The notes: a model not told the origin generated them from the sequence alone. A DNA stretch of 32,000 nucleotides from Scandinavium sp. (GCA_036495715.1 DASXML010000051.1:38745-70744), one strand, 5' to 3'. Shown: positions 6,689 to 29,639, counted from the first letter of the stretch. Numbers and translations are program-made.

Positions 6689-6697
6689 GGCGGTAAA

Positions 6698-9454: not shown

Positions 9455-9466
9455 AGGATTAAAAAC

Positions 9467-9838: not shown

Positions 9839-9860
9839 TAAAGATACAGCGCCCGGCATA

Positions 9861-9890: not shown

Positions 9891-9900
9891 TGGGGGCTTT

Positions 9901-10467: not shown

Positions 10468-10479
10468 GGTTAAATAAAA

Positions 10480-10815: not shown

Positions 10816-10847
10816 CGTCGGGGCGCTGTTTTAGCTGGTGGTTAACG

Positions 10848-11646: not shown

Positions 11647-12173
11647 TGCGCACGCTATGGAAGCCGCTGACCGCTGGCGGCTTAATTCTGCTGGCTCTGT
11701 GCTGGTTTTCCCATGCGCGCTATGAATCTGGCTATCAGGCGGCGGATTCATCCTGGAAACTGAAGGACGAAAAGCGCCAGAAAGCAAACGCGCTGGCGCT
11801 GGCCAGCAAACAGGCCGACGAGCGAAGCAAGGAGAAAGAACGACGTGACGCCGCAGACAAAGCAGCAGCAGAAGCGGACACACAACTTGCTAAAGCGCGT
11901 GCTGATGCCGCTGATGCTGAGCGTACTGGTGACCAGTTGCGCGCAACAATATCAGCCATCCGCAAGCAGTTTGCAGCAAGTGAAACCGGCAGATTATCCG
12001 CAGTTGCCGCAGCAAGCTCGGCAAGAGCCAATACCGGCATTTTGCTTGCCAACGTGCTTGAAAGCGCTGACAAGCGAGCGGGAGAACTGGCGGAATACGC
12101 TGACAGGGCAAGAATAGCCGGTCAGACATGCGAGAAAATTTACAATCAAGTAACCAAAGGAAATCAACAATGA
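11646..12173 (+). CDS. Rz: i-spanin (Rz-like)
   Basis: ATG overlaps the endolysin TGA (TGATG). It has an N-terminal TM segment (LTAGGLILLALCWF) followed by a long charged coiled coil. Confidence 0.85.
   Translation: MRTLWKPLTAGGLILLALCWFSHARYESGYQAADSSWKLKDEKRQKANALALASKQADERSKEKERRDAADKAAAEADTQLAKARADAADAERTGDQLRATISAIRKQFAASETGRLSAVAAASSARANTGILLANVLESADKRAGELAEYADRARIAGQTCEKIYNQVTKGNQQ
11905..12117 (+). CDS. Rz1: o-spanin lipoprotein (Rz1-like), embedded in the +1 frame of Rz
   Basis: MPLMLSVLVTSC carries a lipobox (VTSC). The mature part is Pro/Gln-rich with Cys residues, and the ORF lies entirely inside Rz. Confidence 0.8.
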   Translation: MPLMLSVLVTSCAQQYQPSASSLQQVKPADYPQLPQQARQEPIPAFCLPTCLKALTSERENWRNTLTGQE

Positions 12174-12406
12174 GCGAAGCAAAACCACAGGACGGCAGCA
12201 CCGTAAAGGGTTATCGCAGCCTGACCGACAAAGACATTGCCAACATGAATCGACTTAAAGAAATCAGCCGCCAGTTTTTGGCCCAGCTTTCATTTTTAGA
12301 TAATGGAGAGCATGACGGGCGCTGGCTGGCGATTGCTAAAACTGAAATGCAGAAAGCCTGTATGTCTGCGTGCCGAGCAGTAGCGCAACCGGATGAAGAC
12401 TGCTGA
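12170..12406 (+). CDS. Small phage accessory protein, possibly an Acb2-family cyclic-oligonucleotide sponge (anti-CBASS)
   Basis: ATGA overlap with the Rz stop. The 78-aa protein contains KGYRSLTDKDIANMNRLKE and RWLAIAKTEMQKACMSACRAV, patterns I associate with Acb2/Vs.4-like proteins. Coding is likely, but the function is tentative. Confidence 0.45.
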   Translation: MSEAKPQDGSTVKGYRSLTDKDIANMNRLKEISRQFLAQLSFLDNGEHDGRWLAIAKTEMQKACMSACRAVAQPDEDC

Positions 12407-12432
12407 ATCTGGTGAAGCCCTTGTTGGATTTA

Positions 12433-12458
12433 GCCCGGAACTGACCGGGCATTTTTTT
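12433..12458 (+). terminator. Rho-independent terminator ending the lysis/Acb2-like transcription unit
   Basis: Stem GCCCGG (12433-12438) pairs with CCGGGC (12445-12450), with a 6-nt loop, then ATTTTTTT. Confidence 0.8.
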
Positions 12459-12473
12459 GTCTGTTGACTGGCG

Positions 12474-12491
12474 GGTAACATATAAGTTACC
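12474..12491. promoter_or_regulatory. Perfect palindrome GGTAAC-ATATAA-GTTACC, a candidate operator overlapping a possible promoter (TTGTCT 12457-12462, N18, TATAAG 12481-12486)
   Basis: Read directly from the sequence, about 35 nt upstream of the HTH gene start. Confidence 0.45.
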
Positions 12492-12523
12492 TTTATTATG
12501 TGAATGCACATCAAGGGGGCTTT

Positions 12524-12829
12524 ATGGCCAGCATTGAAACTGATGAAGCAACAATCAGTTACTTAAAGGAAGACCCGCAAGCAAGGCTTGCAATCATAAA
12601 TGAGGTATACCGGCTAATAAGCGATGGTGATGTCGATGTCGCCAAAACCACATTGCGCATGGTTATCAATATGACCTGTGGATTTCGAGCCATTTCTGAT
12701 GAAGTTGGCAGACATCCAAAATCCATCATGCGCATGTTGACCCCGGATGTAGATCCAGGCATCAAGGCGTTTATGTCAGTGGTCAATGCCACAAAGCGCC
12801 AGATAACGAGCGCCGCAAAGGAGGCATAA
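12524..12829 (+). CDS. HTH DNA-binding protein resembling 'addiction module antidote' (HigA-like) proteins
   Basis: ATG at 12524 with AAGGGGG upstream. The pattern YLKEDPQARLAIINEV...DVDVAKTTLRMVINM...ISDEVGRHPKSIMRMLTP fits the antidote family as I recall it. Confidence 0.55.
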   Translation: MASIETDEATISYLKEDPQARLAIINEVYRLISDGDVDVAKTTLRMVINMTCGFRAISDEVGRHPKSIMRMLTPDVDPGIKAFMSVVNATKRQITSAAKEA

Positions 12830-12831
12830 AA

Positions 12832-13266
12832 ATGCAGAGCAATTTACATGAAACCGATTTTTACGGGTGGACGCAGCAACAGGCCGAACTGTTAAGAAAA
12901 GGGAAACTCACTGAGGTGGATGTGATGAATTTAATCGAGGAAATCGAGGACATGGGCGGCAGCGAAAAAAGGGAACTTGAATCACGTCTTGGCGTGTTGT
13001 TTATGCATTTGCTCAAGTGGCGTTATCAGCCCACACACCGTGGCCATTCATGGCGTCTGACCATTGCAGAGCAGCGCAGCAAGATTGCGCGCCGCTTGAG
13101 GAAATCGCCGTCACTCAAGTCTTCACTGGAAGAAATCGCCGCTGACGCTTACAGCGATTCACGTTATGGCGCATCGCGTGAAACCGGTCAGGTGCTGGAA
13201 GTGTTCCCGGATGATTGTCCGTGGACGCTCGCACAGGTGCTGGATGTTGACTATTTGCCAGACTAA
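12832..13266 (+). CDS. DUF29 family protein
   Basis: The N-terminus LHETDFYGWTQQQAELLRKGKLTEVDVMNLIEEIEDMG...ELESRL..LFMHLLKWRYQP is the characteristic DUF29 signature. The start lies 2 nt after the HTH gene stop. Confidence 0.8.
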   Translation: MQSNLHETDFYGWTQQQAELLRKGKLTEVDVMNLIEEIEDMGGSEKRELESRLGVLFMHLLKWRYQPTHRGHSWRLTIAEQRSKIARRLRKSPSLKSSLEEIAADAYSDSRYGASRETGQVLEVFPDDCPWTLAQVLDVDYLPD

Positions 13267-13286
13267 ACAAAGCAGCATCACACCAG

Positions 13287-13311
13287 ACCCGGCCATCGTG
13301 GCGGGTTTTTT
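13287..13311 (+). terminator. Rho-independent terminator after the DUF29 gene
   Basis: ACCCG(G)CCA pairs with TGGCGGGT, giving a stem with one bulge and a 3-nt loop, followed by TTTTTTATT. Confidence 0.7.
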
Positions 13312-13482
13312 ATTGCCCGCGCTCACAGAATCACGCGCACAGCGCGGGTGGGGCGGGGTCAATCGCTCAAACGTGCTGTTTGTAGTTGAAATAAACAGGC
13401 TTCAGAAGTAGACTAAGTGTAAGAGTCTTGCAACAAGGGCGTAAAGTCGCTTGTCCTGCCTGTGTTCGTTCTAATCTCTGCT

Positions 13483-13510
13483 ATTTAACATAATATACAT
13501 TATGCGCACC
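13483..13510 (-). other. dif: dif, the XerC/XerD chromosome dimer resolution site
   Basis: ATTTAACATAATATACATTATGCGCACC is the exact reverse complement of E. coli dif GGTGCGCATAA-TGTATA-TTATGTTAAAT (28/28). Confidence 0.9.
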
Positions 13511-13567
13511 AAAAAAAGATACGAAGAATTGTCCGCTTTGTGCGGGTAAACCCCTAAGGAGAAGCAC

Positions 13568-14032
13568 GTGAAAAAGACCATTGCCATTCTTATAGTTGGA
13601 TTGTTGTTTTCTTCATTAAACGCCAGTGCAAGCACAGAACTAGTTTTTCAGTGCATGACAAAAAGCAAAAAAACAATAAAAATAGAACGTGAAAATGAAA
13701 CTTTAAAATACACATATGGCAACGAGAAAAAAAATGACTTAACGTTGGAGACTCCGCTTTTCAGTGAGAAAATTCCAACTCTTTTTTCATCAGATGTTCA
13801 ACTTGGAAACAAATCCGGACCTTATATTTTCAACACTGTTACATTTCATAATGGAGAATATGCATATTCAGTCTCCGCATTAAGTGACATCAATGTTCCA
13901 TCAGACGAAACCTTTACAGGGGTTTATGTCAGCGGAGAGCGCATAAAAACCACTAAAATCAAATGTATAGAGGGCACCATACAAGATAACTTTGAGTCCC
14001 TCTTTGATTTTAATCGCTCACGCAACAAATAA
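13568..14032 (+). CDS. Secreted (Sec signal peptide) 154-aa protein of unknown function; a possible periplasmic immunity partner
   Basis: GTG start with AAGGAG 6 nt upstream. The signal peptide is MKKTIAILIVGLLFSSLNASA/STE. The gene is strongly AT-rich, encodes two Cys residues and is convergent with the 789-aa gene. Confidence 0.7.
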   Translation: MKKTIAILIVGLLFSSLNASASTELVFQCMTKSKKTIKIERENETLKYTYGNEKKNDLTLETPLFSEKIPTLFSSDVQLGNKSGPYIFNTVTFHNGEYAYSVSALSDINVPSDETFTGVYVSGERIKTTKIKCIEGTIQDNFESLFDFNRSRNK

Positions 14033-14059
14033 AAAATGGGCTTACTATTAGGTAAGCCC
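14028..14059 (-). terminator. Rho-independent terminator of the 789-aa gene; the hairpin is shared with the convergent gene
   Basis: Stem GGGCTTAC (14038-14045) pairs with GTAAGCCC (14052-14059). On the minus strand it is followed by ATTTTTTATTT. Confidence 0.75.
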
Positions 14060-14072
14060 TTACATCAAATCA

Positions 14073-16442
14073 CTAAATGCCACTGAATATTTTTTCGTCG
14101 AAAAACGCAATCAGATTTTTGTATCGAGCATTTTTTGTATTAGTGCCCGGGTTTACTATATTCGTCACATTATGTGATGCATTCTCTGTTATACCATCAT
14201 CAGCTTTTTTGTAAGCTTCATAAAAATCCCAAAAGAACAATGCTGACCGCACAACTTGTTTTGTTGATGCAGTAATTAACTCTGGATGCTCTTCATAATC
14301 CACTGGGTCGTTCCAGACCTTATTAGCATATCGAGTAAAGGCTCTATAATTATATCTTCCAGTGAGCTGCTTCATTCCCCTGCCCTTATAGCGCCATCCA
14401 TCCCCTGGTTCTGTATTACCATTACGCCCGCCATAAGCTTTATTGGCAATCGCTTCCTGATTTGCTCTGTGTGCAGCTGTTCGCCCGTCAATTTCCTGTT
14501 CATCAGGATGTCTTCGGTAGTAACTGAAGAGACCAGGGAGCGCTGTTGCCGCATAATTTAAACTCTCATCTATTGTGAACGTAGCCCCCGTTTCCTGATA
14601 AACCTGAGCCATAAAGTGATACAGCCGAACCTCAGTATTAAGATGACAGCGTTCCAGATTATCATTTAACTCATCCGCAACCTGCTGGAGAACCTCGTCG
14701 CTGACATTGCGACTATTCGTCCATATCTTACGCAACATTGGTAGCGTGATTTTGCCGCTTCCGGGCTTAAGCATCTCCAGAAACTCAAGCGGATGAAAAT
14801 GCCATACTGACCGCTGACTGGCGAACGGCGGCACCTTATCCATCCAGCGCGTTGCATCCAGAAATCCCCCGTTGGCCATCTTCACAACCGGGCTTTCATC
14901 CCTGACCTTAAATACCGACGACCAGCGTGTATCATCGCGGGTACTGTGCCAGTCGCTGTCGTGTTTCACTATCAGGCGTCGCGCATATTCCGGGATATTC
15001 ATCTGGTTCGTATGCAGTGCACCAAACAAATACTGGTCCTGTGATTTATCGGGATACGGGTTCGGCGGTCTTCTGTTTTCGGCGTTATGGATCAGGCTGT
15101 CATAAAACATTTTTGCCTGCGCGAACTGTGGTCCCTTTTCACCGTCAAAGTGCGAGCTGATGCTTTTCAGGGCATCAATGAGCCAGCGTTCATCCAGCGT
15201 GCGCGTAAAATCGGTTGTGTGTTCAGCCTCAATACAGTGAAAGTTTAGCCCTGCTAAATCGTGCTGGCTGAGCTGCTCCACGTCGTCCTGGTGCATCCAC
15301 GTATGCGGGCGGATCTGAAAGTATGTGACCCCGGTTTTATCCGTAAACGGGTACGTGGCATCGCGCGGAATAATTTTTCCGGCATCGGCACGGGTAATGG
15401 CGCTCATCTGCTCAAAGCTACTTTCCTCGTCCTCCCCGTTTCTCAGGTACATCGGGCGTTTCAGCTTCAGCTTAATAAACTGTTTGCCCGTTTTGATGCC
15501 CTTTACGTTTGCCACAAAATCAGGCACATGTTCATCGAGGCTCAGCAGCTCGATATGGGCTTTATAGTCCGTGGTGATAATCTGCGGATGGTTATCTTCG
15601 TCAGCCAGATCCTGAGCGCCCAGGAACCCGACCGCATCCCCTGCTTTCACCGTCACTTTCAGCGGCGCTGGCGGCACCACCACATCATCAAACACGCCGT
15701 GATTCAGGGCGCTGTGCATCCAGTCAGGCAGACACACGTAGCATTCGCCGTCAGGCTCCAGATATTCCGGGCGGATCGAGACCCAGAACAGCTCCCCGGC
15801 GGGTTTACCGTCCTGAAGACGCTGCACCAGGGCGAACGGCTCCGGCCGTTGTTCCAGTAAAAACGATTTTTGTTGCAGTACGGCAAGCGTGTCACCCTGC
15901 GTCAGCGTTCTGGCGTGGCCGTGTTTGTTTGCCAGCACGTCCGGCGCGATTTCACGGCTGTCATCGTGGCGGGAATGTTTACGCATCCGCACGCCGTGGC
16001 CTTTCTGCGTAACCCGGTAAAGCGGGCGTTTCGGAAATTCTGACAATGGCGCGATGTGCATGTACAGCTGGTACAGCGTCAGCCAGGTGGCTTCATCCTG
16101 TTCGTCGGGCTTATACACTGATTTAACCAGCACAAAGGTGCCGGACTGGCGCAGGGGGCGTTCCTGATAACACTCAATAGCCGCATAATCGCGGTTAATC
16201 CGCCATGCCACCACCTCGCCGTCCATCATGAACTGGAGCGGCACCGATTTTTCCGGCGTATCCGGATCCAGCACCGAGGCCGGGGACGATGACGTCCCGA
16301 TGTGGATCCCACCGTGCCAGTAACGATTTACGCCAAGTAACCACCACCCGTGGGCGTTTTTGCGGATGTCGGTCAGCAGCTCGTCATAGTTCTTATAGTC
16401 CCGTCCGTCGGCTTTCCGTACCGGATAACGTATGTTCATCAT
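14073..16442 (-). CDS. Large two-domain cell-wall hydrolase-like protein with an N-terminal LytM/M23-like region, a central unknown region and a C-terminal GH19 (chitinase/lysozyme-like) domain; no signal peptide
   Basis: GH19 block: LYHFMAQVYQETGATFTIDES (two Glu 9 residues apart), YGGRNGNTEPGDGWRYKGRGMKQLTGRYNY. M23-like pieces: WHGGIHIG, LYQLYMHI and VKAGDAVGFLG...YKAHIEL, where the HxH motif is degenerate. AAGGA RBS upstream and its own terminator. Confidence 0.75.
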   Translation of the reverse strand: MMNIRYPVRKADGRDYKNYDELLTDIRKNAHGWWLLGVNRYWHGGIHIGTSSSPASVLDPDTPEKSVPLQFMMDGEVVAWRINRDYAAIECYQERPLRQSGTFVLVKSVYKPDEQDEATWLTLYQLYMHIAPLSEFPKRPLYRVTQKGHGVRMRKHSRHDDSREIAPDVLANKHGHARTLTQGDTLAVLQQKSFLLEQRPEPFALVQRLQDGKPAGELFWVSIRPEYLEPDGECYVCLPDWMHSALNHGVFDDVVVPPAPLKVTVKAGDAVGFLGAQDLADEDNHPQIITTDYKAHIELLSLDEHVPDFVANVKGIKTGKQFIKLKLKRPMYLRNGEDEESSFEQMSAITRADAGKIIPRDATYPFTDKTGVTYFQIRPHTWMHQDDVEQLSQHDLAGLNFHCIEAEHTTDFTRTLDERWLIDALKSISSHFDGEKGPQFAQAKMFYDSLIHNAENRRPPNPYPDKSQDQYLFGALHTNQMNIPEYARRLIVKHDSDWHSTRDDTRWSSVFKVRDESPVVKMANGGFLDATRWMDKVPPFASQRSVWHFHPLEFLEMLKPGSGKITLPMLRKIWTNSRNVSDEVLQQVADELNDNLERCHLNTEVRLYHFMAQVYQETGATFTIDESLNYAATALPGLFSYYRRHPDEQEIDGRTAAHRANQEAIANKAYGGRNGNTEPGDGWRYKGRGMKQLTGRYNYRAFTRYANKVWNDPVDYEEHPELITASTKQVVRSALFFWDFYEAYKKADDGITENASHNVTNIVNPGTNTKNARYKNLIAFFDEKIFSGI

Positions 16443-16755
16443 CTTTCCTTAAGTGAAATCCCTCAAAACCTTAATCATCGCAGGGAGTTAAAAAAAGGGA
16501 AGCAGAAATTAACGTAACTGTATTGCGATATATGACGAAAAAGACGGCTTAGCAGGGGGCGCGAAGCGCTGGGGATTGTGCTTTATGGTATCTCGCCCTG
16601 GTATCGGCGGGCTGACGACGGGCGAATTATGACGCGTTGTCATGCCGCCTTCCATGCCTGGCGGCATCAACACATCACCGGTGCTCTCTTCCATGCTGCT
16701 GACACGAGAAGGCATCACACTAAGCCTGCCTCCTCGCACAGCTGCGGGGGCATCC

Positions 16756-17973
16756 TTAGTGTGACACCTTCCTGGCCTGAAGAATGACGACAATATCCGT
16801 TTTGTATTTTTCCGTACTTTTTGTCGCGAACCACGACGGCATAAAGGTTAATCCCGTATCGGTATCAGTCGTCTTGTTTTCCGCCAGACCGCCGATAAGA
16901 ATGATATCGCCATCCTTCACAGATACCGCCGTCTGTATGCTGCGCTTTATCAGCGTTGGCGAATTGTTCACGCCCGTGTTTGTCTTCGCAAAGTTCGACA
17001 GTTCCTGACTGATGTTCAAATCAATAACGTCGGAACGCACCCACGGCTGCACGTTAAAAATCACGCCGCTGGAACGGTATTCAACGGACTGCACGGCCTT
17101 GTCGCCTTCATACGAGACGTTCCCCAGCACGGGAACATCTTCCCCGACGGAAAACGACGCCTGCGTGCCGGATCGCGCCCTGAGCGATGGCGAGCTGACA
17201 ACATGAAAGCGGCTGTCGGTTCTGAACAGCTCATACAGTGCGGTGAGGCTCCCCGAACTGAACTTGATGAAGTTCTGATAGCCCGCTTCACCCGTGCCGC
17301 CAATCTGGATCGAAAGCTTTTCATTAAGTAACTTTGCCGCCAGTGCCAGACCGGATCCATTTCGTTCATTGGTCTGCACCTCAAAGACATATCCGCCCAC
17401 GTAAACCTCAGAGGTTGGCGTATCCACTGACGGTAACAACTGCTCTATTTTGCGGATATCCGCCCGCGAGCCGTAAAACACCAGAACATCGCCGTCCCCG
17501 TTGATATTACCGGTTCTGGCAACGGCGGGCTGAAGCGTTGCCCCCTGCACCGATTCCGCACCGGAAACGGATCCGAAATCCCCGCCGACGATCCCGCGCA
17601 GAAGGCCGGAAAGATACGCGACGCTGCGGTGTTTTGGCGCATAGACAAAGCTGAATTTCGGCTCAATGACCTGTTTTGGCGTCACCGGGAAAATATAGTC
17701 AACGCCCCCTTTCTGGCTTATCGCGATGTTCATATTCTGGAGATAACGGGCAAAAAACTGTTTTGCGTCGGTCTGCTCCGTGATGTGGAACGACACGATA
17801 CGCGGATCTGCCGCCAGTTCCGGAGCCAGCATAAAGGGCTGTTTCAGCACATCAGCGTAAAAAAAGGTGATGGCCTTCGGGAGCTGCATCGCGTCAAGAC
17901 GAAAATCCACGCTAACCGCCATCGCGGACAGGCTGAACAGACTCAGCAGGCAGGACAAAAGTAACTTTTTCAT
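16756..17973 (-). CDS. Inovirus pIV-type secretin
   Basis: Signal peptide MKKLLLSCLLSLFSLSAMA. The C-terminal secretin-like region includes GEDVPVLGNV and DGDIILIGGL. ATGA overlap with the Zot/pI-like gene. Confidence 0.85.
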   Translation of the reverse strand: MKKLLLSCLLSLFSLSAMAVSVDFRLDAMQLPKAITFFYADVLKQPFMLAPELAADPRIVSFHITEQTDAKQFFARYLQNMNIAISQKGGVDYIFPVTPKQVIEPKFSFVYAPKHRSVAYLSGLLRGIVGGDFGSVSGAESVQGATLQPAVARTGNINGDGDVLVFYGSRADIRKIEQLLPSVDTPTSEVYVGGYVFEVQTNERNGSGLALAAKLLNEKLSIQIGGTGEAGYQNFIKFSSGSLTALYELFRTDSRFHVVSSPSLRARSGTQASFSVGEDVPVLGNVSYEGDKAVQSVEYRSSGVIFNVQPWVRSDVIDLNISQELSNFAKTNTGVNNSPTLIKRSIQTAVSVKDGDIILIGGLAENKTTDTDTGLTFMPSWFATKSTEKYKTDIVVILQARKVSH

Positions 17974-19007
17974 GATTTATCACCGCTGAAATAAGAGACG
18001 ATTTCACCGTCAACGATGCCATTCAGCATCATGCCGTCATTTGAAAATCCCGCACGGGATACCATGCGGTTAAGCCCGGATGCATCAGTGAGCACCACAT
18101 AGCTTTTACCTTCCCGGCTTAGCGTCCCGTTGACGCGCCAGCGCTTCGACAGTGACGGTTTCGCGGGTTCCGGTTGGACATTCTGCATTCCCTGAGACAC
18201 GACAGCGCCGGGTGGCAAAGTCCCCTGGCTGTCCGCCAAAGTTACTTTTTTATCGGACCCGGCTGAATGAAAAAACGACGTGATGACATAAGCGGATCCG
18301 CACATACACATAATGATGATGGTGAACAGCACCCAGAGTTTCTTTTGCTTAAAAATATTCTGGCGGTCATCCACGGTCTGCTCATTGCCCTGCCCGCCAT
18401 AATGCGAGTGATACAGCCCGTAAATTTCATCCTCAAATTTATTCTGGTAACTGGTAATTTTCGACGACTTAAATAATTTAGCCCCGGCAAACACGTCCAC
18501 CCTGTAGCGTTTTTTCAGCCCCAGCGAAACGTGTTTCTGCATTCTGTACGTGGTCTCAATTCGCGTTTTGATAAAACGGGCAATGGAATCCAGACTCTGG
18601 TTAATCACCACAATATCGCAGGTGGTCGCCGTTTCAGCATCGGACATATGGCGGTGTTCAGCGAAAAAGGCGCGGTGCTCTTTACACAGGCTTTTATCCG
18701 CATCCCAGAACCGCCAGGCTTCATCAATACAGATTAAATCCCCGTGCTGACAAAACGTCTGCTCAGCATCCTTGTACGGTAAAAAGTTTTTATCCGTCAC
18801 CTGATCGTTGCTGACGTGAATGATTTCCCCGAGCGTATTCAGGTCTTTGCTATTGCGACGGGCATAATCAGAAAAGTTACTTTCGTTCACGCCGTCGATA
18901 TTGGTCACAATACGTCTGCCCGACAGATACGCCGGAAGAATAACCGACTTGACGACCTCATACGATTTTCCGTGACCGGGAATACCAATATATGCAGAAA
19001 TTGCCAT
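17970..19007 (-). CDS. Zot / pI-type assembly ATPase
   Basis: N-terminal Walker A in MAISAYIGIPGHGKSYEVV, a central TM segment (LWVLFTIIIMCMCGSAYVITSFF), and the expected position between pVI and pIV. Confidence 0.9.
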   Translation of the reverse strand: MAISAYIGIPGHGKSYEVVKSVILPAYLSGRRIVTNIDGVNESNFSDYARRNSKDLNTLGEIIHVSNDQVTDKNFLPYKDAEQTFCQHGDLICIDEAWRFWDADKSLCKEHRAFFAEHRHMSDAETATTCDIVVINQSLDSIARFIKTRIETTYRMQKHVSLGLKKRYRVDVFAGAKLFKSSKITSYQNKFEDEIYGLYHSHYGGQGNEQTVDDRQNIFKQKKLWVLFTIIIMCMCGSAYVITSFFHSAGSDKKVTLADSQGTLPPGAVVSQGMQNVQPEPAKPSLSKRWRVNGTLSREGKSYVVLTDASGLNRMVSRAGFSNDGMMLNGIVDGEIVSYFSGDKS

Positions 19008-19009
19008 GA

Positions 19010-19297
19010 TTAACCTATTACCGGAAGACGACGAATAATAAACCGGGTAAACATTGCGCTGAATACCAGGGGGATCCCGATATCGGCTTTAAAGTAATAC
19101 AGGAAAAACCACATTCCGTCCGGCAGCAGATTAAACAGCCCGGCAATATCGCCAGACTGCGGCAATCTGTCCGCCACCACGGAGAAAAGTTCCTTTACGG
19201 CAAAAAAGAGCGTGGTGAATAACACAAACTTTAATACCGCCCCTCTTAACAGATACGCCAGAACGGCATTAAACGCAGAAACAAGAATGCCAAACAT
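19010..19297 (-). CDS. pVI / Ace-like minor coat protein
   Basis: 95 aa and very hydrophobic. The C-terminus MFTRFIIRRLPVIG resembles the Ace C-terminus as I recall it. Correct position. Confidence 0.65.
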   Translation of the reverse strand: MFGILVSAFNAVLAYLLRGAVLKFVLFTTLFFAVKELFSVVADRLPQSGDIAGLFNLLPDGMWFFLYYFKADIGIPLVFSAMFTRFIIRRLPVIG

Positions 19298-19304
19298 ATG
19301 TCAC

Positions 19305-20648
19305 CTATGCACTGAGCACCACACGAAGCGCCACAATTGCCCAAATAAGCGTTGAAACGACTTTTGCAATATCCCGTAATTTTTCAAGTAACAGGCACTG
19401 TGAATCAATGGTGATTTCCGTTCCAAATATCTGGAAACTGCCCGTCGGACATACTGAGGCATGGCCTTCCAGCTTCATATTATCGATCCACGACAGCGGT
19501 GAAATAACCGGAGCCATTATCTGTCTGGCCGTGGGGACATCATCAATATCGGGCGCTTTAATATCCGGGTTCTCACCTAAATCAATTGAGGGCTTATCAG
19601 ATGTCGCTACTTTATTGGGAATATTCACCGTCCCGTCTGCTTTAAACGCCGAATCAAACAGGGATGATTTACTGACGGACGTATTATCTTTCGCCAGAAG
19701 CTGTTTAATTTCATTTGCCGTAATCGCATCCGTATCGGCGAACGGCACACCGTCATAGCCCGTCTGTGTAGCCGCATCATGCATCAAATCATTCATGGCC
19801 TGCGCCAGCACATCCGCCTTCACCTCTGTCTGGCCTGCAACCTGCTGTAATGCTTCTGCCGTCGTCAGCACAGACGCGCCCAGAGACGGCAGCGTTTCCC
19901 CGTCCTTTAACGTGCGCTGATAATTGTAAATCGTCACCTGCGTTGCCCCGGTCTGGCCGTTGGGAGAATACCAGCGCTCGGACGTACTGTTCACGCTTGC
20001 CCAGTTCTTAAAGACAGGCTCATCGGTCAGGGAATAAATGTTATACGTACTGCCCGTGGTTGTTTTCGTAAACGCCGGAAGATACGGCATCCCGCGCACA
20101 TCGCGCCCGGCGGTGTCCTTCATGTAAACCAGTTTACCATCCCAGAACTTCAGTTCGCCGATACCCGCCGACTCAGGCGAACGATAAACCGGAACCGGCG
20201 AAAAAGGGACTTTTGTATCCGTGCCGTCAACGGTGACGGTATAACTCCCGTCGGAACTGGCCTCACCGTTCACCATTTTCACGGCATCATCAAACACGTC
20301 GCCAAACAGCTGCGTCACCGTGTACGCGGTTCCTGCCGTATTCAGTCCTGCCCAGGTGGCCTTACCTGCTTTTGACAGAAAAGAAGACTTCGGAACCAGC
20401 AGTTCCCGCGCCAGTGCGGCTTTATTGACGTTCTGTATGGTTGCGGCCGCAACCTGTCGGGTAAACGCAATATCCGCCGCCTGCTCTGCCGCATAAATGG
20501 CCGAACGTCGGGCAATCACTGAACCGAATAATTCACCCAGTCCGATTAACACCGGATTGGCATAAGCAAGTCGCGGAAATGAACCGTAAGCGATCATAAC
20601 ACAGGTGAAATACACAATTAGCCGTTTAAGCCCTGAATTACCGCCCAT
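19305..20648 (-). CDS. pIII-like receptor-binding/adsorption protein
   Basis: ATG at 20648 gives the signal peptide MGGNSGLKRLIVYFTCVMIAYGSFPRLAYA/NP, and there is a C-terminal membrane anchor (VVSTLIWAIVALRVVLSA). The listed GTG at 20738 would read through the gVIII terminator. Confidence 0.7.
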   Translation of the reverse strand: MGGNSGLKRLIVYFTCVMIAYGSFPRLAYANPVLIGLGELFGSVIARRSAIYAAEQAADIAFTRQVAAATIQNVNKAALARELLVPKSSFLSKAGKATWAGLNTAGTAYTVTQLFGDVFDDAVKMVNGEASSDGSYTVTVDGTDTKVPFSPVPVYRSPESAGIGELKFWDGKLVYMKDTAGRDVRGMPYLPAFTKTTTGSTYNIYSLTDEPVFKNWASVNSTSERWYSPNGQTGATQVTIYNYQRTLKDGETLPSLGASVLTTAEALQQVAGQTEVKADVLAQAMNDLMHDAATQTGYDGVPFADTDAITANEIKQLLAKDNTSVSKSSLFDSAFKADGTVNIPNKVATSDKPSIDLGENPDIKAPDIDDVPTARQIMAPVISPLSWIDNMKLEGHASVCPTGSFQIFGTEITIDSQCLLLEKLRDIAKVVSTLIWAIVALRVVLSA

Positions 20649-20699
20649 GCACACAATAACCCCCAGAGAAATACAACGAGATCGACCATTTCCGGCACC

Positions 20700-20733
20700 A
20701 TAAATAAAGGGAGGATAATGATTACCCTCCCTT
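20700..20733 (-). terminator. Rho-independent terminator directly after the major coat gene
   Basis: The minus strand reads AAGGGAGG-GTAATCATTAT-CCTCCCTT followed by TATTTAT. The stems are at 20707-20714 and 20726-20733. Confidence 0.7.
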
Positions 20734-20752
20734 TTCACTTTTATTGTTGTTA

Positions 20753-20986
20753 TTACGCCGAACGCACCATACGCAGTACGTGTTTCACGCCAGCAAAGAG
20801 CGCATACAGCCCGGCGACCGCTGCCGCAATACCCAGAATCGCCGTACCCACATCACCAAAATCAATTGCGCCTGTCAGTGCGGTGAGATCGAATTTACTG
20901 GTGCCTTCCGCCGCCATGACGGACGGTGCAGTAACAGCAGAGACAGCGGCCAGTGCAACCAAAGTTACTTTTTTCTTGATGGACAT
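20753..20986 (-). CDS. Major coat protein (pVIII / Cep-like)
   Basis: Signal peptide ending VMA/AEG. The mature ~52 aa has an acidic N-terminus, a hydrophobic core (VGTAILGIAAAVAGLYALFAGV) and a basic C-terminus (KHVLRMVRSA). Confidence 0.85.
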   Translation of the reverse strand: MSIKKKVTLVALAAVSAVTAPSVMAAEGTSKFDLTALTGAIDFGDVGTAILGIAAAVAGLYALFAGVKHVLRMVRSA

Positions 20987-20995
20987 ATTTTCACC

Positions 20996-21193
20996 TTATA
21001 CATTTTTGATAAAACGTAATACCGTACCCACTCCCAGAGAGAATAAATAAAGCGATATTACCGAGGTAAACGCAACGCCCCAGACCTTACCTAAATAAGC
21101 GTAATCAATACTGTCTGGCGCATTGCCTGTTAACGTTAAAGAAATTTGCTGGCAGACCTGCGCAGCGTCACACACCGTTCCGGTGATATCCAT
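20996..21193 (-). CDS. Minor coat protein (pVII/pIX position)
   Basis: 65 aa with a single C-terminal TM segment (VWGVAFTSVISLYLFSLGVGTVL), located between the ssDNA-binding and major coat genes. Confidence 0.5.
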   Translation of the reverse strand: MDITGTVCDAAQVCQQISLTLTGNAPDSIDYAYLGKVWGVAFTSVISLYLFSLGVGTVLRFIKNV

Positions 21194-21208
21194 TATTTCA
21201 CTGTGTGA

Positions 21209-21496
21209 TTATTTGGTGTTTTCAGAAACCGGAACCAGCTTAATGTTTTTTACTTTTAATGCGCCGAAATCGCCCACATCAAAAGACGCATTATCCAGCG
21301 TATAAAAACCTGCCGGATAAGGTGCGGCATCTTTATCCAGACTGATAACAAACTGCTTCGGGTAAACACCGCCGTTATAAATATAGGCAATCTGCTCGCG
21401 GAAATTTAATACCTCCCCGGTTTGTTTGGATGTTACCTGTTTAGTGCGGACTTTACCATCGACATCGTTAATTTCAATCTTGACCACATTCACCAT
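21209..21496 (-). CDS. Gene V-type ssDNA-binding protein
   Basis: Collinear with M13 gVp as I recall it. YPKQFVISLDKDAAPYPAGFYTLDNASFDVGDFGALKVKNIKLVP compares with YPVLVKITLDEGQPAYAPGLYTVHLSSFKVGQFGSLMIDRLRLVP. Confidence 0.85.
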   Translation of the reverse strand: MVNVVKIEINDVDGKVRTKQVTSKQTGEVLNFREQIAYIYNGGVYPKQFVISLDKDAAPYPAGFYTLDNASFDVGDFGALKVKNIKLVPVSENTK

Positions 21497-21512
21497 GATT
21501 ATTTCCTTTCAT

Positions 21513-22640
21513 TTAAAACGGGCATTTTCCCGTCTGGAGTTTTTCATTGAGTAACGTCTGGTAAACCGGAGGGATATCCAGACTTAATTTCGCATTAATT
21601 AAATGTTCTTCCCGCACTATCATTGATATGACGGTCTTAATATCGCCTTCAAAGAAATGAAAGACTTTCGCTATCGTTGACGATGCCTGATTACGTAACC
21701 ATCTGACTTTTGCTTCAATCGTATCGACGGCCTTACGTCCAAATAGTTTTGGAATGGAATATGGTGCAACAGGGCTTATTTGTGCAGCATACGCACACAG
21801 CCCCACATATATCCCGGCAATATTCAGCAGCACATCAACCGACACGCCTTTTAATTCCACTTCTGAACGGTACCAGATACCGGAAACCTTTTGTTCCAGC
21901 GCCTTGTTATAAATTCGCCAGTAAACGCGGGACTGACGGGAACCCACCGTCAGGATCTCTTTTGTCAGACAACCATTGGCATCACGGCCACGGGATTCAT
22001 CAATTTTGGGTTTCGGACCCGCTCCGCCGTAAAAGGCATCATCGGAGTACGCCGAACTGGCGGCATCACAGGTATAGATACCATCGTAATCGTCGGTCGC
22101 CAGGTCAATACGCTTGAGCGTGTAAATATCCAGATGCTGAAGCCATTTGTGGATCTTCTGCGGGGTCGTCCCGCTGAATACGTGGGCGCAGCCCTTGCCG
22201 GTGATCTGCACGTAGAACGTGTCTTTATTCCCGCCCCAGAACAGCTTGCCGTAAAACTCGCTGCCGCCCTCTTCACTGTACAGCACGGCGGAATCTTCAT
22301 ACGCAAATCCACCTTTTCCCAGCGAGGGACCGACGGCCAGACCAAACACGGCGGCGATCCACGTCTTTAAACGCGAGTGGTAACAGGCATACAAATCCAT
22401 GGCGAGCTGGCATTTTTGCTCTTCGGTCATGCCTTCATCGTCGGATCCGGGCAGATCGTCATACCCTTCAGAACAGGCATAAACACTTGAATGCTTATAG
22501 TGCCGATAGGACGGCAGATACTGGAATTTACGCCATTCAAAGCCCTGCTCCGGGAACGTATGCACGGACTTCATAACCGAAAGCGGCGCAGTGAAGGCCA
22601 GCCAGTCAGTAATGACGTAGCGTTCAGCTGCATCAGCCAT
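21513..22640 (-). CDS. Rolling-circle replication initiator (Rep_trans / RstA-like)
   Basis: Motifs RIDLATDDYDG, VYWRIYNKALE and YRSEVELKG fit the Rep_trans family. ATG at 22640 gives an ATGGCTGA overlap with the upstream small ORF, whereas the listed TTG at 22679 overlaps it by 47 nt. Confidence 0.75.
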   Translation of the reverse strand: MADAAERYVITDWLAFTAPLSVMKSVHTFPEQGFEWRKFQYLPSYRHYKHSSVYACSEGYDDLPGSDDEGMTEEQKCQLAMDLYACYHSRLKTWIAAVFGLAVGPSLGKGGFAYEDSAVLYSEEGGSEFYGKLFWGGNKDTFYVQITGKGCAHVFSGTTPQKIHKWLQHLDIYTLKRIDLATDDYDGIYTCDAASSAYSDDAFYGGAGPKPKIDESRGRDANGCLTKEILTVGSRQSRVYWRIYNKALEQKVSGIWYRSEVELKGVSVDVLLNIAGIYVGLCAYAAQISPVAPYSIPKLFGRKAVDTIEAKVRWLRNQASSTIAKVFHFFEGDIKTVISMIVREEHLINAKLSLDIPPVYQTLLNEKLQTGKCPF

Positions 22641-22827
22641 TGAGCGACTCCCGATAGCCGGTGAACTGACCCGAAGCAATCACCGTTGTCGCCAGCAGAA
22701 AATCATCGCCAAAATGCAGGTGGCATTCTTTGATCAACTCATCGAACGAATGGAAGAAATCCCACTCAGGTCCGACCTGAGCGTTGATGCCACAGTTTTC
22801 GAGAAAATCAAAGTAGACGATGTTCAT
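22633..22827 (-). CDS. Small acidic protein (64 aa), first gene of the inovirus minus-strand operon
   Basis: ATG start, translationally coupled to the Rep gene. No family recognised. Confidence 0.5.
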   Translation of the reverse strand: MNIVYFDFLENCGINAQVGPEWDFFHSFDELIKECHLHFGDDFLLATTVIASGQFTGYRESLNG

Positions 22828-22924
22828 ATGCCCTCAATTGCAAGATGAAAGACCTGACAAAAGCCGACCACATCAAAAATAACACATGAGTTCATTAGCT
22901 TTTTCGATTACAAACATACATTAC

Positions 22925-22940
22925 TGAACATGTGAGTTCA
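22925..22940. promoter_or_regulatory. Inverted repeat TGAAC-ATGTGA-GTTCA; a candidate operator in the divergent control region
   Basis: Read directly from the sequence. Related GTTCA half-sites occur at 22885-22895 (CATGAGTTCAT) and 22959-22966 (ATGTTCAT). Confidence 0.4.
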
Positions 22941-22951
22941 AGAGGCCTTGA

Positions 22952-22978
22952 TTGATAATGTTCATGAGCGGATATAAT
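22952..22978 (+). promoter_or_regulatory. Candidate sigma-70 promoter for the plus-strand regulator operon (TTGATA, N15, TATAAT)
   Basis: -35 at 22952-22957 and a consensus -10 at 22973-22978. The spacer is short at 15 nt. The start codon is at 23010 with GGAG upstream. Confidence 0.45.
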
Positions 22979-23009
22979 TGAATGAAATTGCACTTATGGA
23001 GCGTAAGAG

Positions 23010-23192
23010 ATGGCAAAACGCATGACTTACAACGTGACAGAAGAACGAAAGATGAAGCTGGAACGACTGGCGATTAATACCAGCGTTAAATTAGGAAAAA
23101 CAATCACATGGACTGAATTGCTGGGATATCTGATTGATAATTATGCAAAAGACGCTGCTGACGATCTAATGTCAAGCAGACAAAAGACATAA
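23010..23192 (+). CDS. Small ribbon-helix-helix-like regulator (RstR-equivalent position)
   Basis: 60 aa. MTYNVTEERKMKLERLAINTSVKLGKTITWTELLGYLIDNY fits a beta-strand plus two helices (RHH) pattern. It is divergent from the Rep operon. Confidence 0.5.
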   Translation: MAKRMTYNVTEERKMKLERLAINTSVKLGKTITWTELLGYLIDNYAKDAADDLMSSRQKT

Positions 23193-23216
23193 TAAAACAG
23201 ACATGGGTTCCACAGT

Positions 23217-23483
23217 ATGAACGTGCCGTTGAAAGCAACTATAAGACTAAAAAAGCAAGAATCTGCAGAACTACAAGATCTGGCGTTTTCATTGAATAAA
23301 GAAGCACTTAAATACGATCAAAAGCGCTATTTCACTGAGTCTGACCTTGTTCACTTCGTGCTGGAGAACACGCTGGGTTGTGTGGAAGTCACCCATGGCG
23401 GCTACCTTAGCCTTAACCGTGAAAAAATGGCCGAGGTCATCACCGTACTGGAGACAAGAAACGGTGAAAGAGCTGCACGCTGA
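23217..23483 (+). CDS. Hypothetical small protein, possibly a second RHH-like regulator
   Basis: 88 aa. KATIRLKKQESAELQDLAFSLN...SDLVHFVLENTL. Confidence 0.4.
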   Translation: MNVPLKATIRLKKQESAELQDLAFSLNKEALKYDQKRYFTESDLVHFVLENTLGCVEVTHGGYLSLNREKMAEVITVLETRNGERAAR

Positions 23484-23601
23484 CGAACTGCAAAAAGTTT
23501 GATCGTAACGGTCGGAGCGCGCTTTATCCCGGAGTTATCCTGAGACTACCCCCGTAGTACATGACGGGGGTTTAACAGTGCCCTTCTTTGAGAGCGATGG
23601 A

Positions 23602-23928
23602 ATGAAGAGACGTAAACTCGATAAATGGCTTAAAAAATTCGAAGAGAAACACGGCGTAACAGCTGGCGATCCAAATGTCGTTGGCTATGCCCTGTTCAAC
23701 AAGGAAAAACGTGCATTCGTGAGCCTCACTGATGGTGATTACGAACCGACAGACATTTACACAGGCGATCTTGACGATGCCTTCCTGACTGACAACATGG
23801 GTGATGCCTTCAGTGTCATGATGGAACTGGAAGATTACGACAACATCAGCATTGTTCCGGTGATTTATAACGAGCTGTTTGGGATGACGGTGAAACCCGG
23901 CTCATTAGACACACATAATCAAGGTTGA
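23602..23928 (+). CDS. Hypothetical acidic protein (108 aa)
   Basis: ATG at 23602 is preferred over the listed GTG at 23578, which abuts the hairpin ACCCCCGT/ACGGGGGT at about 23548-23571. Confidence 0.45.
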   Translation: MKRRKLDKWLKKFEEKHGVTAGDPNVVGYALFNKEKRAFVSLTDGDYEPTDIYTGDLDDAFLTDNMGDAFSVMMELEDYDNISIVPVIYNELFGMTVKPGSLDTHNQG

Positions 23929-23936
23929 ATGGATTT

Positions 23937-24031
23937 GGTTCGCACAATGACGTTATGTGTAAATAGGCCGCTGCGGTGCTCGATTCTCGCAGCGGCCTAT
24001 TCAACATAACGCGTGCTACATTATGCGTACC
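23937..24031. repeat. Forked inverted repeat made of two dif-like sites; a candidate folded ssDNA attP remnant (CTXphi-type)
   Basis: Left arm 23937-23975. Right arm 23988-24031. Perfect 14-bp stem AATAGGCCGCTGCG/CGCAGCGGCCTATT with a 12-nt loop. Outer parts are XerD-arm-like and XerC-arm-like, with central regions of unequal length. Confidence 0.7.
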
Positions 24032-24111
24032 AATATTGTAACAGCAAAGTTGTAATGTCCGCCTATGGCTAAGTTAAGATGTCCGGCGTGTATAATCAAG
24101 TAAGGATTACC

Positions 24112-24891
24112 ATGACGGCTCTCGCAGCGGAGTTTTTCACTTTGGATGAAGTTAACCGACTCAAGATTATTCAGGACGTCATCGACCGGCGTCTGACAAC
24201 ACAGATGGCAGCGCAGCGGCTTGGGATATCCGACCGTCAGTGTCGCCGTCTTCTTGCGCGTTATCGTGAAGATGGTCCACTTGGCATGACCAGCCGTCGC
24301 CGTGGTAAAGCAAGCAACCATCAGTTGCCTCAGGGACTGGCCGCATACGCGCTGAATATTATTCGCGAACGCTATAACGATTTCGGGCCGACGCTGGCCT
24401 GTGAAAAACTGTCTGAGGTTCATGGAGTTCATCTTTCAAAAGAAACAGTTCGCAAACTCATGACTCAGGCCAGTCTTTGGGTCCCACGCAAGTACGACAA
24501 AGTGCTTTACCTGATTGAAGACAGCGAATTCAGTCGTCGGGCGATTGGAAAATACATCGATGTCTGGCATTACCCTGACGGACATAAAGAGCTCCGGCTT
24601 AATGGCGTATCACTTCCCTACTCCACCTATGACAAGCTTTCTGAAATCGATCAGGGGGCCATTGTGGACAACAAACGTCTGGGGCGGGCTCTGGAAATGG
24701 CGCAACTGGTTCAGGCCGAGCGCGATAACAACCGGTCCCAGTCCGTGCCAGCTGGAGATGGCCCTTCACGCAGGCGTAAAGCGCCTACGACGAAGAAATC
24801 CCAGCGTTCCCTGGATCAGGACGATATGTTCAATGCACTGGTGAAACTTCAGTCACGCTCTGAAGAAATATTTGGGAAAAAGCAAATTTAA
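24112..24891 (+). pseudogene. ISNCY-type transposase with an internal deletion (no catalytic core)
   Basis: The N-terminal HTH part (LTTQMAAQRLGISDRQCRRLLARYREDGPLGMTSRRRGKASN...FGPTLACEKL) joins directly to a C-terminal tail (YPDGHKELRLNGVSLPYSTYDKL...IVDNKRLG). It is 259 aa versus the ~450 aa I expect. TATAAT at 24091-24096 and TAAGGA upstream. Confidence 0.65.
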
Positions 24892-27635: not shown

Positions 27636-28636
27636 TCAGACAGGATCAATCCTGACAATGATTTTGCCAAGTTGTTGGTTTGACTCGAGATACTGGTGTG
27701 CTTCCCGCAACTCTTCAAATTTAAAGCATTTATCTATCTGTGGCTTCAGGAAACCAGCCCCCATACCGCTCAGGATAAAACGCTTCGCTTTCTCCCGGAT
27801 GGATGGATCATTCAACACTTCCAGAAAGAGGAAGCCCCGCATAGTGAGACTCTTACGTAATGCGAGTCGCAGAGGAAAAGGCGTTACATCAGGACTCAGC
27901 GCACCATGTATGATCATACGCCCTTTTGCGGACATGGCCTGCGCGATATGTTCAATCTGCGGTCCACCAACAGCATCAAACGCGACATCAAGATGCTCGC
28001 CCCCTAACCGCGAAACAATCGCCTGATAGAGGTCAGGTTCATCTTCGCTGGCTACGACATCTTTCACACCTAAGGCAAGCAGACGTTCCTTTTTCTCCAC
28101 CGTCAGGGTGCTGGCAATAACTCTGGCACCCGCCGCTTCTGCAATCTGAACAGCACCAGACCAACACTACTTGATGCGGCAGTGACCAGCACGGACGCAC
28201 CCTTTGTCACTTCCCCGGCATGCATGATCCCTCCCCAGGCGGTAAGATATTGCATCCACACCGACGAGGCTTCCTCCCAGCTAAGGCTATCAGGTTTATG
28301 TACAATATAGCTTTCAGGGATCAGCAGTTTATCCGCGCAGGTGCCAAAGCGCGCCAGGCTGTCAGAAGGCAGCACTGAAACATTATCTCCAGCAGAGAAC
28401 TGCTTAACACCTTCGCCCGTAGCCAGCACCACGCCAGCACCTTCGTAACCAAGACGAGAGGGAAACACGGCCTTCTCGATGTAAGTACCTCGTCTGAACA
28501 TGGTGTCTGCCCGGTTCAGACCGATGGCTTTCATCTGAATAAGCACCTCACCTGCTGCCGGTAAGGCAACAGGCAGGTTTTCGAGTTCAAGGACGTCGGC
28601 TTCTCCGGTGCAGTTAAAGCGCCATGTTCTCGCCAT
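27636..28636 (-). pseudogene. MDR-family (zinc-type ADH-like) quinone oxidoreductase disrupted by a 1-nt frameshift
   Basis: ORFs 28103-28636 and 27636-28100 are the two halves of one protein. The reading AASSSVGL|AVQIAEAAGARVIASTLTVEKKERL is restored by adding one G near 28156-28157 (a GG that should be GGG on the minus strand). Confidence 0.8.
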
Positions 28637-28643
28637 CAGGCCG

Positions 28644-29639
28644 TTAAATGACATCAATCACAACCTTGATGGAGGCTGAACCATCCTGAACTGCGTGGTG
28701 GGCATCAATGGCCTGGTCGAGGGCAAAATGGCGAGCATCGACGACCGGGCGAATTTTGCCTTCTTCAACCAAACGGGTCGCAGTTTTCAGAACGTCACCG
28801 TGATGCGCCCTACGTTCACCTGTGAGCATTGGCAGAAGAATGAAGACACCCGACAGGGTAGCGCAACGCAGGGATGACGTTGCCAGATTATGGTCACCAA
28901 ATGCTGCACAACTGGTGATATGGCCGTAATAGCGCGTCATGGAAAGTGAAGCATCGAGAACAGGGCCACCAACAGTATCGTAAACGATATCAAAACCTTC
29001 ACCATCGGTGCATTTCTCAATGATGTCCTGCGCGGAAACTTTTGTGTAATCCAGTGGAGTAGCACCCAGCTTCGTAATCAGCTCCTGATCTGCCGTACCT
29101 CCGGTCGCCGACACTTTTGCACCGAGTGCAGCAGCCAGTTGGACAACCATGTTACCTACACCACCGGCACCACCCTGAACCAGCACATGCTGACCAGCCT
29201 GCACATTAGCGTTATCGACAAGACCAGACCATGCCGTGAGGAACGTTAACGGCAGGGCTGCGGCTTCGCGCATGGAAAGGTTGCGGGGTTTGATGGCAAG
29301 CAGGTCCGCATCCGCAGCAATGAACTCAGCCAGTGATCCCTGAAGGCCGCGAACGCCACCGGTCAGGCCGTAGACTTCATCTCCAACACTGAATCGGGTT
29401 ACGCCTTCACCGACAGCAACCACTTCTCCTGCCATATCAGTACCCTGCACAGCCGGAAGCTGAGGCATGGCATACGGAGCTTCTCCAAGACGAATTTTAT
29501 AATCAATCGGGTTTACGCCGCTGGCATGGACACGCACTAAAACCTGACCGGCCTGTGGCTGTGGCACCGGGAGTTCTTTACGGGCAAATATATCATCACC
29601 GAAATTTTCGAGTACGAGAGCAGTCATTGTCTGGTTCAT
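28644..29639 (-). CDS. MDR-family NADPH:quinone oxidoreductase
   Basis: Contains GQVLVRVHASGVNPIDYK and the GGAGGVG nucleotide-binding motif. 331 aa. Confidence 0.9.
   Translation of the reverse strand: MNQTMTALVLENFGDDIFARKELPVPQPQAGQVLVRVHASGVNPIDYKIRLGEAPYAMPQLPAVQGTDMAGEVVAVGEGVTRFSVGDEVYGLTGGVRGLQGSLAEFIAADADLLAIKPRNLSMREAAALPLTFLTAWSGLVDNANVQAGQHVLVQGGAGGVGNMVVQLAAALGAKVSATGGTADQELITKLGATPLDYTKVSAQDIIEKCTDGEGFDIVYDTVGGPVLDASLSMTRYYGHITSCAAFGDHNLATSSLRCATLSGVFILLPMLTGERRAHHGDVLKTATRLVEEGKIRPVVDARHFALDQAIDAHHAVQDGSASIKVVIDVI

Follow-up and report, generated by a model that had tools for sequence, protein, structure and literature searches.

A forked hairpin of two inverted dif-like sites at an inovirus prophage junction in Scandinavium is a probable CTX-type attachment site

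The forked hairpin at positions 23937–24031 of a 32,000-nt stretch of DNA from Scandinavium sp. (GCA_036495715.1 DASXML010000051.1:38745-70744; the whole stretch is referred to as the window) is very probably the attachment site of an integrative filamentous phage of the CTX type, kept at the XerC-side junction of the prophage. It consists of two inverted dif-like sites flanking a perfect 14-bp stem, and a direct read of the window returned the sequence quoted in the initial annotation. Every prediction that the CTX type makes at the level of sequence holds for the window's element, and a single-stranded substrate, catalysis by XerC only, resolution by replication and irreversibility would follow by analogy with CTXphi. 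The interpretation is itself already known: CUS-1 of Escherichia coli O18:K1:H7 and YpfPhi of Yersinia pestis were previously classed as CTX-type. The parts of the hairpin, in window positions, are as follows.

23937–23964, + strand: inner dif-like site 'b', made up of GGTTCGCACAA, the 5-nt spacer TGACG and TTATGTGTAAAT; counterpart of CTXphi attP2
23962–23975 with 23988–24001, unstranded: perfect 14-bp inverted repeat, the stem that extends and nucleates the forked hairpin
23976–23987, unstranded: 12-nt loop closing the 14-bp stem
23999–24020, − strand: phage part of the outer dif-like site 'a'; counterpart of CTXphi attP1
23999–24009, − strand: XerD-like arm of site a, TTATGTTGAAT, with 1 mismatch to the XerD arm
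24010–24020, − strand: 11-nt spacer of site a, TGTAGCACGCG, whose first 4 nt are those of the dif spacer TGTATA
24021–24031, − strand: XerC arm at the hybrid junction, GGTACGCATAA, assigned to the host

On the − strand the order is GGTACGCATAA (24031–24021), the 11-nt spacer, TTATGTTGAAT, the stem-loop and the complement of site b. Folded as single-stranded DNA, both strands formed one long forked hairpin, at −31.6 kcal/mol (z −7.3) for the + strand and −35.4 kcal/mol (z −9.1) for the − strand, and 0 of 200 shuffles matched the native fold. The check on both strands that had been proposed therefore came out in favour of the structure, and the perfect 14-bp stem with its 12-nt loop was found as described, at 23962–24001. 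In the fold the XerC-like arms are paired with each other, as are the XerD-like arms with one bulged base. Relative to the canonical XerC arm GGTGCGCATAA, GGTTCGCACAA has 2 mismatches and GGTACGCATAA has 1, in agreement with the counts originally given. The claims for the XerD-like elements and for the spacers held in part. The XerD-like element of the right arm stands, but that of the left arm, with 3 mismatches and a 5-nt spacer, is weaker than had been implied; the spacer lengths of 5 and 11 nt are correct, but the two do not simply stay unpaired, since 5 nt of the longer spacer pair with the shorter one and 6 nt bulge out.

Lone XerC-like arms are not rare: 15 11-mers with at most 2 mismatches were found, where 11.8 were expected. 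Because such matches are common by chance, the significance of the hairpin lies in its paired arms, inverted order, complementarity and conservation in relatives taken together rather than in any single arm. As duplex Xer sites both sites would be abnormal, with spacers of 11 and 5 nt, and homology to the dif spacer TGTATA is confined to TGT(A) beside the XerC arm.

The other end of the element lies about 10.5 kb away, at a perfect dif, and the region between the two ends has the gene content of an inovirus.

13483–13510, − strand: perfect dif GGTGCGCATAATGTATATTATGTTAAAT, composed of GGTGCGCATAA, TGTATA and TTATGTTAAAT; exact match, 0 expected by chance
13500–24020, − strand: inovirus prophage unit, 10,521 nt, with structural and replication genes on the − strand
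13568–14032, + strand: 154-aa ORF, phage cargo, adjoining the regenerated dif (cargo region 13568–16442)
14073–16442, − strand: 789-aa protein, phage cargo, with a C-terminal lysozyme-type domain
16756–17973, − strand: Secretin (Pfam, above cutoff)
17970–19007, − strand: Zot (Pfam, above cutoff)
19010–19297, − strand: DUF2523 (Pfam, above cutoff)
19305–20738, − strand: candidate receptor-binding protein
20753–20986, − strand: coat-protein-like ORF, Phage_Coat_B, 21.1 bits, slightly under the Pfam cutoff of 23.5 bits
21209–21496, − strand: ssDNA-binding protein, Phage_DNA_bind (Pfam, above cutoff)
21513–22679, − strand: Rep_trans replication protein (Pfam, above cutoff)

This gene set bears out the earlier proposal of an inovirus prophage lying between the hairpin and a perfect dif, with the dif next to the cargo end. 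The replication protein shares 35% identity with RstA of CTXphi. Small ORFs on the + strand adjoin the hairpin, and most of the small phage ORFs have no Pfam family. No integrase, resolvase or transposase domain was detected in any ORF of 13500–24020 with Pfam or PHROG, and the element between dif and hairpin is accordingly read as an inovirus that has no recombinase gene of its own. The dif abuts the phage DNA directly and is of the E. coli type; its identity to E. coli dif suggests that it is functional.

The cargo beside the dif was examined separately. PHROG endolysin families matched residues 561–779 of the 789-aa protein, and PDB endolysins matched the protein with E = 7e-17; the lysozyme/endolysin-type domain is placed at approximately 560–780, the N-terminal part matched no function, and the gene is divergent from the 154-aa ORF. 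In a sister phage that shares the hairpin (L011, 45–2712), this place is taken by a different 773-aa protein, with a weak Pesticin match, and a 118-aa ORF. The arrangement looks like a candidate bacteriocin-plus-immunity pair.

The reaction that joined phage and host could be read from a second, independent sequence. A 10,551-nt contig from sample SRR11833493 (L009), retrieved by exact-protein look-up, has a 30-nt end overlap and closes into a circle of 10,521 nt, which after rotation matches window positions 13500–24020 with 100% identity. Logan assemblies use k = 31, so that a 30-nt end overlap is the signature of a closed path, and a tandem prophage gives an identical path. The contig could therefore derive from a tandem prophage instead of a free circle; the junction would be identical in either case. 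This junction reads GGTTCGCACAATGACGTTATGTGTAAATAGGCCGCTGCG, the loop, CGCAGCGGCCTATTCAACATAACGCGTGCTACATTATGCGCACC and then AAAAAAAGATACG, which is the full hairpin with the canonical arm GGTGCGCATAA, and is followed by the same DNA as the window from 13511 onward, past the dif. The proposed check on whether a circular form recreates exactly this structure came out positive, with the canonical outer arm in place of the one in the window.

Between the circle and the prophage junction, the outer XerC arm is the sole difference. It follows that the XerC arm within the perfect dif (13500–13510) is phage-derived, the spacer and XerD arm of that dif host-derived, and GGTACGCATAA at 24021–24031 the host's own arm, an assignment that draws on the circle and on the other species described below. 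On this comparison, circle and chromosome exchanged the XerC arm and nothing besides. The comparison also agrees with the original proposal that both sites remain together at the XerC-side junction while a dif is regenerated at the other end. The crossover can be placed within one short interval.

24017–24027, with its twin at 13496–13506, unstranded: crossover interval TACATTATGCG, an 11-nt stretch common to attP and the host dif

The interval is bounded by the nearest differences and includes the XerC cleavage position at the border of arm and spacer. As the arms of host and phage are one base apart, the locus amounts to a natural experiment in which the exchanged arm, and a crossover within 11 nt, are readable. 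On the strand that is sense for the phage genes, the exchanged site reads XerC arm, spacer and XerD arm from 5' to 3'. In inoviruses the gene-sense strand is usually the packaged (+) strand, and from the gene orientation we infer that the packaged (+) strand corresponds to the − strand of the window.

The proposed mechanism can be set out as a series of predicted steps. The phage genome would be a 10,521-nt circle with two imperfect dif-like sites in inverted order, site a reading GGTGCGCATAA, an 11-nt spacer and TTATGTTGAAT, and site b reading GGTTCGCACAA, a 5-nt spacer and TTATGTGTAAAT. These sites would anneal on the packaged (+) strand (the − strand of the window) into a duplex in which a XerC-binding side and a XerD-binding side flank a centre that is partly unpaired, with a 6-nt bulge. 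Host XerC would cleave past the XerC arm of site a and swap that single strand with the host dif. A second exchange could not follow because the match to dif is limited to the first 3–4 spacer nucleotides (TGTA), and the intermediate would be resolved by replication. The predicted product has the host XerC arm and the whole hairpin at one end, and at the other end a new functional dif, in which the phage XerC arm is followed by the spacer and XerD arm of the host. Integration would in this way have replaced the host's variant dif arm by the canonical arm of the phage. The 5-nt spacer of site b is shorter than those of known Xer sites (6–8 nt) and of CTXphi attP2 (7 nt), and this counts against the model.

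The non-canonical arm at the hybrid junction had been regarded as a discrepancy in the simple model, an objection that is resolved by reading GGTACGCATAA as the host's arm. The corresponding variant dif 28-mer, GGTACGCATAATGTATATTATGTTAAAT, is native in 53 species representatives, including Pantoea, Erwinia, Rahnella, Tatumella, Mixta, Buttiauxella, Franconibacter, Pseudocitrobacter and many Pseudomonas. The host-type junction also recurs in a second sample, SRR11835595 (contig L007). A point mutation after integration was considered as a source of GGTACGCATAA and is less likely than a native variant, given that the base recurs in L007 and the variant is common. In Tatumella morbirosei (L055, ~930–1019) an IS of the window's type has its left end 5 bp past the variant dif, an arrangement that reads as the predicted pre-integration configuration in a different genus. 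For the window itself, the model's empty host site would read ATTTAACATAATATACATTATGCGTACC, AATAT and then the IS. No match to such a site was obtained in two metagenome scans, with the variant dif plus IS and the left flank plus dif as queries, where a known carrier contig was likewise not returned. Flanks in common with the window were absent from the 53 variant-dif genomes, and E. coli genomes gave no match to the window's flanks either.

The DNA next to the host arm belongs to an insertion sequence.

24032–24891, + strand: ISNCY element of the IS1202 family, ISAba32 subgroup, with the 5-bp spacer AATAT and the left end TGTAACAGCAAAG... from 24037
24079–24891, + strand: truncated transposase, 270 aa as against 467 aa at full length

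The element is ~90% identical to annotated ISNCY transposase genes and has an internal deletion of ~620 bp. Its membership follows from the arrangement TTATGCGTACC, AATAT and then TGTAACAGCAAAG..., with the IRL 5 bp from the XerC arm and the transposase reading away from it. In E. coli A25 and in Tatumella this IS end is likewise separated by 5 bp from the native dif, and on a plasmid by 5 bp from a Xer site (loci compared: L002 5988–6030, L003 2984–3030 and L055 ~930–1019). Members of the ISAba32 subgroup have their IRL 5–6 bp from the XerC arm of a Xer site (10.1101/2022.12.17.520857). The right end (IRR) and a 5-bp direct repeat were not found for the window copy. The IS lies outside the phage unit, and an arsH fragment comes after it, an order also seen on E. 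coli plasmids.

Further to the right, the flank is ~92% identical to accessory plasmid regions of Klebsiella, Enterobacter and Pantoea, and for this reason the replicon of the window may be a large plasmid or chromid. The cumulative GC skew has its peak at the dif, at ~13–14 kb, which would suit a replication terminus, but the two prophages, with their genes in opposite orientations, confound the signal. At 27636–28657 a zinc alcohol dehydrogenase is split into two adjacent ORFs (154 and 183–184 aa), one for its N-terminal and one for its C-terminal half; the ~92%-identical plasmid regions have it as one gene of 339 aa, and the split gene is probably a frameshifted pseudogene. On the opposite side, window positions 1–13400 hold a tailed-phage structural and lysis module that ends ~100–200 nt from the XerD side of dif, so that mobile DNA is present on both sides of the dif. 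The module includes DUF2213, an Ig-like protein, a major capsid protein, DUF4054, a DUF3383 sheath-like protein, a tape measure protein, a Dit-like protein, a holin, DUF2514 and DUF29. An ORF at ~12170–12406 has a precomputed Acb2/Tad1-hairpin Pfam match and is a possible anti-defence sponge.

Hairpins homologous to that of the window were found in 230 of 5,426 complete E. coli genomes (~4%, at ≥80% coverage), with 85–88% identity between the window and E. coli. Each of the eight full-length copies examined has an inovirus prophage on one side and hipA on the other, and is on the XerC side of the E. coli dif; where prophages are in tandem, their junctions carry the hairpin too. The comparison with attP regions of related inoviruses that had been recommended thus shows homologous hairpins at the ends of inovirus prophages in E. 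coli. The prophages that carry them differ as follows.

DLI.6n, 90-9280, NC101 and SCU-101: CUS-1-like prophages with the hairpin and a layout of Rep II/X, DUF2523, Zot and GspD-like secretin
KFu015 and FDAARGOS_1256: second backbone, with an 'attachment protein' and DUF5455
G5: third backbone, with a layout like that of the window's phage; ISKpn21 abuts the arm
Strain 700481: fourth backbone, with a 666-aa replication endonuclease

The hairpin records (L001, L004, L075, L076, L077, L082, L083 and L084) thus represent at least four inovirus backbones with differing replication and structural genes. In KFu015 the prophage is present three times in tandem, and the far end of the array is a perfect dif. 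The genes directly upstream of the E. coli hairpins vary as well, and encode a Doc-family toxin, an STM4504-family protein or hypothetical proteins. Megablast found no similarity between the window's phage, outside the hairpin, and either the E. coli genomes or the phage collection. It appears that phages swap the attachment module and the neighbouring cargo slot. Against the phage collection the hairpin itself gave no blastn match, and an exact-pattern scan of IMG/VR viral contigs with the left arm returned 0 matches. In these E. coli prophages the outer arm is GGTGCGCATAA at host junctions and internal junctions alike, as would be expected of identical host and phage arms.

Among nine homologues the arms, most of site b with its 5-nt spacer TGACG, and the stem core are invariant, and the loop and the long spacer vary. 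The long spacer is 10–11 nt (10 in NC101) and variable in sequence, with an invariant TGT beside the XerC arm. All nine fold alike, with 96.6% of cells paired as against 31–48% with slid partners. Covariation was limited to one compensatory pair and did not exceed the shuffle controls because the homologues are too similar to one another. The hairpin reliably marks where inoviruses integrated at dif end on the XerC side, tandem arrays included.

These homologues bear on whether the folded single strand is needed. The double-stranded replicative form might instead integrate through site a alone, by a XerC exchange like that of VGJphi, with site b and the stem serving otherwise. Such a duplex reaction would leave identical junction sequences, and site a does have a perfect XerC arm and a XerD arm with one mismatch. 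We nevertheless regard it as improbable, because the spacer of site a is variable at 10–11 bp, where known duplex Xer sites have 6–8 bp (10.1101/2022.12.17.520857; PMC3089051), and because every homologue, over four or more different inovirus backbones, has kept a site b that is complementary to site a. The architecture moreover parallels CTXphi attP1/attP2 (PMC3089051).

Recurrence of the hairpin also bears on whether it could be a chance palindrome, or one made by assembly at a contig join. De Bruijn assemblies do break at the repeat, as L007 starts in the hairpin and L078 ends in the dif. However, several independent samples share this sequence, as do complete E. coli genomes, and no shuffle folds as well, so that chance or artefact is left with a negligible probability, and an assembly-made palindrome is refuted by the recurrence in finished genomes. 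Breaks at this locus in public assemblies include the JGI contig Ga0376679_0000053, which starts at window position 13380 (L010), Logan contig L078, which ends at 13497, and L007, which starts at 23998. The window spans joins that short-read assemblies left unresolved.

A part of the hairpin was also found away from phages. Approximately 700 further E. coli records, in which 487 of the places are on plasmids, match the inner 70 nt only. In the two records examined, one on a plasmid (L067, 4002–4115) and one at a chromosomal dif (L068, 6003–6125), the fragment runs from site b over the stem-loop to the XerD-like arm of site a (compare window 23937–24008) and lies directly inside the IRR of a passenger-carrying ISNCY element of the IS1202 family. 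The plasmid element has 5-bp repeats at its flanks, and the two 5-mers beside the chromosomal one are alike but for one position. Upstream of the fragment is the passenger gene, of the STM4504 family in the former and SIR2 in the latter. The STM4504 passenger is 60% identical to the cargo of the NC101 prophage (L076, 13068–13997), which lies beside a complete hairpin, suggesting capture of inovirus cargo, along with a part of attP, by IS elements of this kind. No published description of such a capture was found in the literature.

On a broader and more tentative reading, which we hold to be somewhat doubtful, the hairpin would be a mobile module that links two kinds of Xer-exploiting element, with the IS having taken inovirus cargo and part of attP to plasmids; within that reading, spread may possibly have been as cassettes bounded by inverted Xer-like sites. 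The neighbouring Xer-targeting IS in the window and the hairpin fragment within a passenger-carrying IS suggest that cargo genes move between dif prophages and plasmids.

The phage-free fragments downstream of passenger genes are also what might be expected if the inverted repeat served chiefly to terminate transcription, or as another single-strand signal of the phage (for packaging, or as complementary-strand origin), with incidental dif-like arms. The inner stem is GC-rich, the repeat is placed past the last gene before the junction, and the E. coli versions are flanked by an A-run and a T-run (AAAAGGCCGCTGC...GCAGCGGCCTTTT) in the manner of a bidirectional terminator. In the window, however, a terminator scan returned nothing at the hairpin and no T-run follows the stem, and a terminator leaves unexplained the 11-mers matching XerC and XerD arms on both sides, the crossover at the XerC arm and the regenerated dif. 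We consider this explanation very unlikely as the main function of the repeat, while a secondary terminator or packaging role may exist alongside attachment. A CTX-type attachment site thus remains the preferred reading of the hairpin, and is compared below with known systems.

In CTXphi, attP1 (12-nt spacer, starting with TGT) and attP2 (7-nt spacer) are inverted and fold on the (+) strand into attP(+); XerC swaps one pair of strands with dif and replication finishes integration, which leaves a functional dif and two non-functional sites (PMC3089051). The attP(+) work is that of Val et al. (2005), in the summaries given by PMC3089051 and PMC4246890. The attP sites of CUS-1 and YpfPhi have features of single-stranded DNA integration (PMC3089051), and YpfPhi has an inverted pair of XerC/XerD sites with an intact dif at one end (PMC4266046). 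Both phages are listed as relatives of CTXphi in the CTX-type column of PMC4246890 and as enterobacterial IMEXs related to CTXphi in PMC3442271. The mechanism is established for CTXphi, and for CUS-1 and YpfPhi it has been proposed from sequence only.

The window's element resembles CTXphi in its inverted pair of dif-like sites, in a long spacer beginning with TGT (12 nt in CTXphi, 11 nt here), in a second site with a short spacer (7 nt in CTXphi, 5 nt here) and in a forked hairpin on the (+) strand. The two also share the lack of a phage recombinase, an RstA-type Rep, tandem arrays (here in relatives), and the presence of both sites at the XerC-side junction with a functional dif regenerated opposite. 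They differ in that the sites are ~90 nt apart in CTXphi but ~40 nt apart here, across the 14-bp stem and 12-nt loop, and in that the arms in the window match enterobacterial dif and not dif1. The window's phage furthermore has its own secretin, and its cargo is a protein with a lysozyme domain rather than a toxin. The likeness to CUS-1 and YpfPhi is that E. coli prophages of that gene layout carry the 85–88% identical hairpin; the comparison runs through E. coli prophages of the same annotation pattern, and the cargo and small regulatory ORFs of the window's phage differ.

IMEXs of the VGJphi and TLCphi types likewise use host XerCD and dif and have no integrase. They integrate reversibly through one duplex attP whose spacer is normal, whereas the window has two inverted sites with abnormal spacers, and in TLCphi XerD acts first with the activator XafT. 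Integron attC sites offer a parallel, drawn in PMC3089051: the substrate is a folded single strand, one strand is exchanged and replication resolves the product, but the recombinase is IntI and the sites have no sequence relationship to dif.
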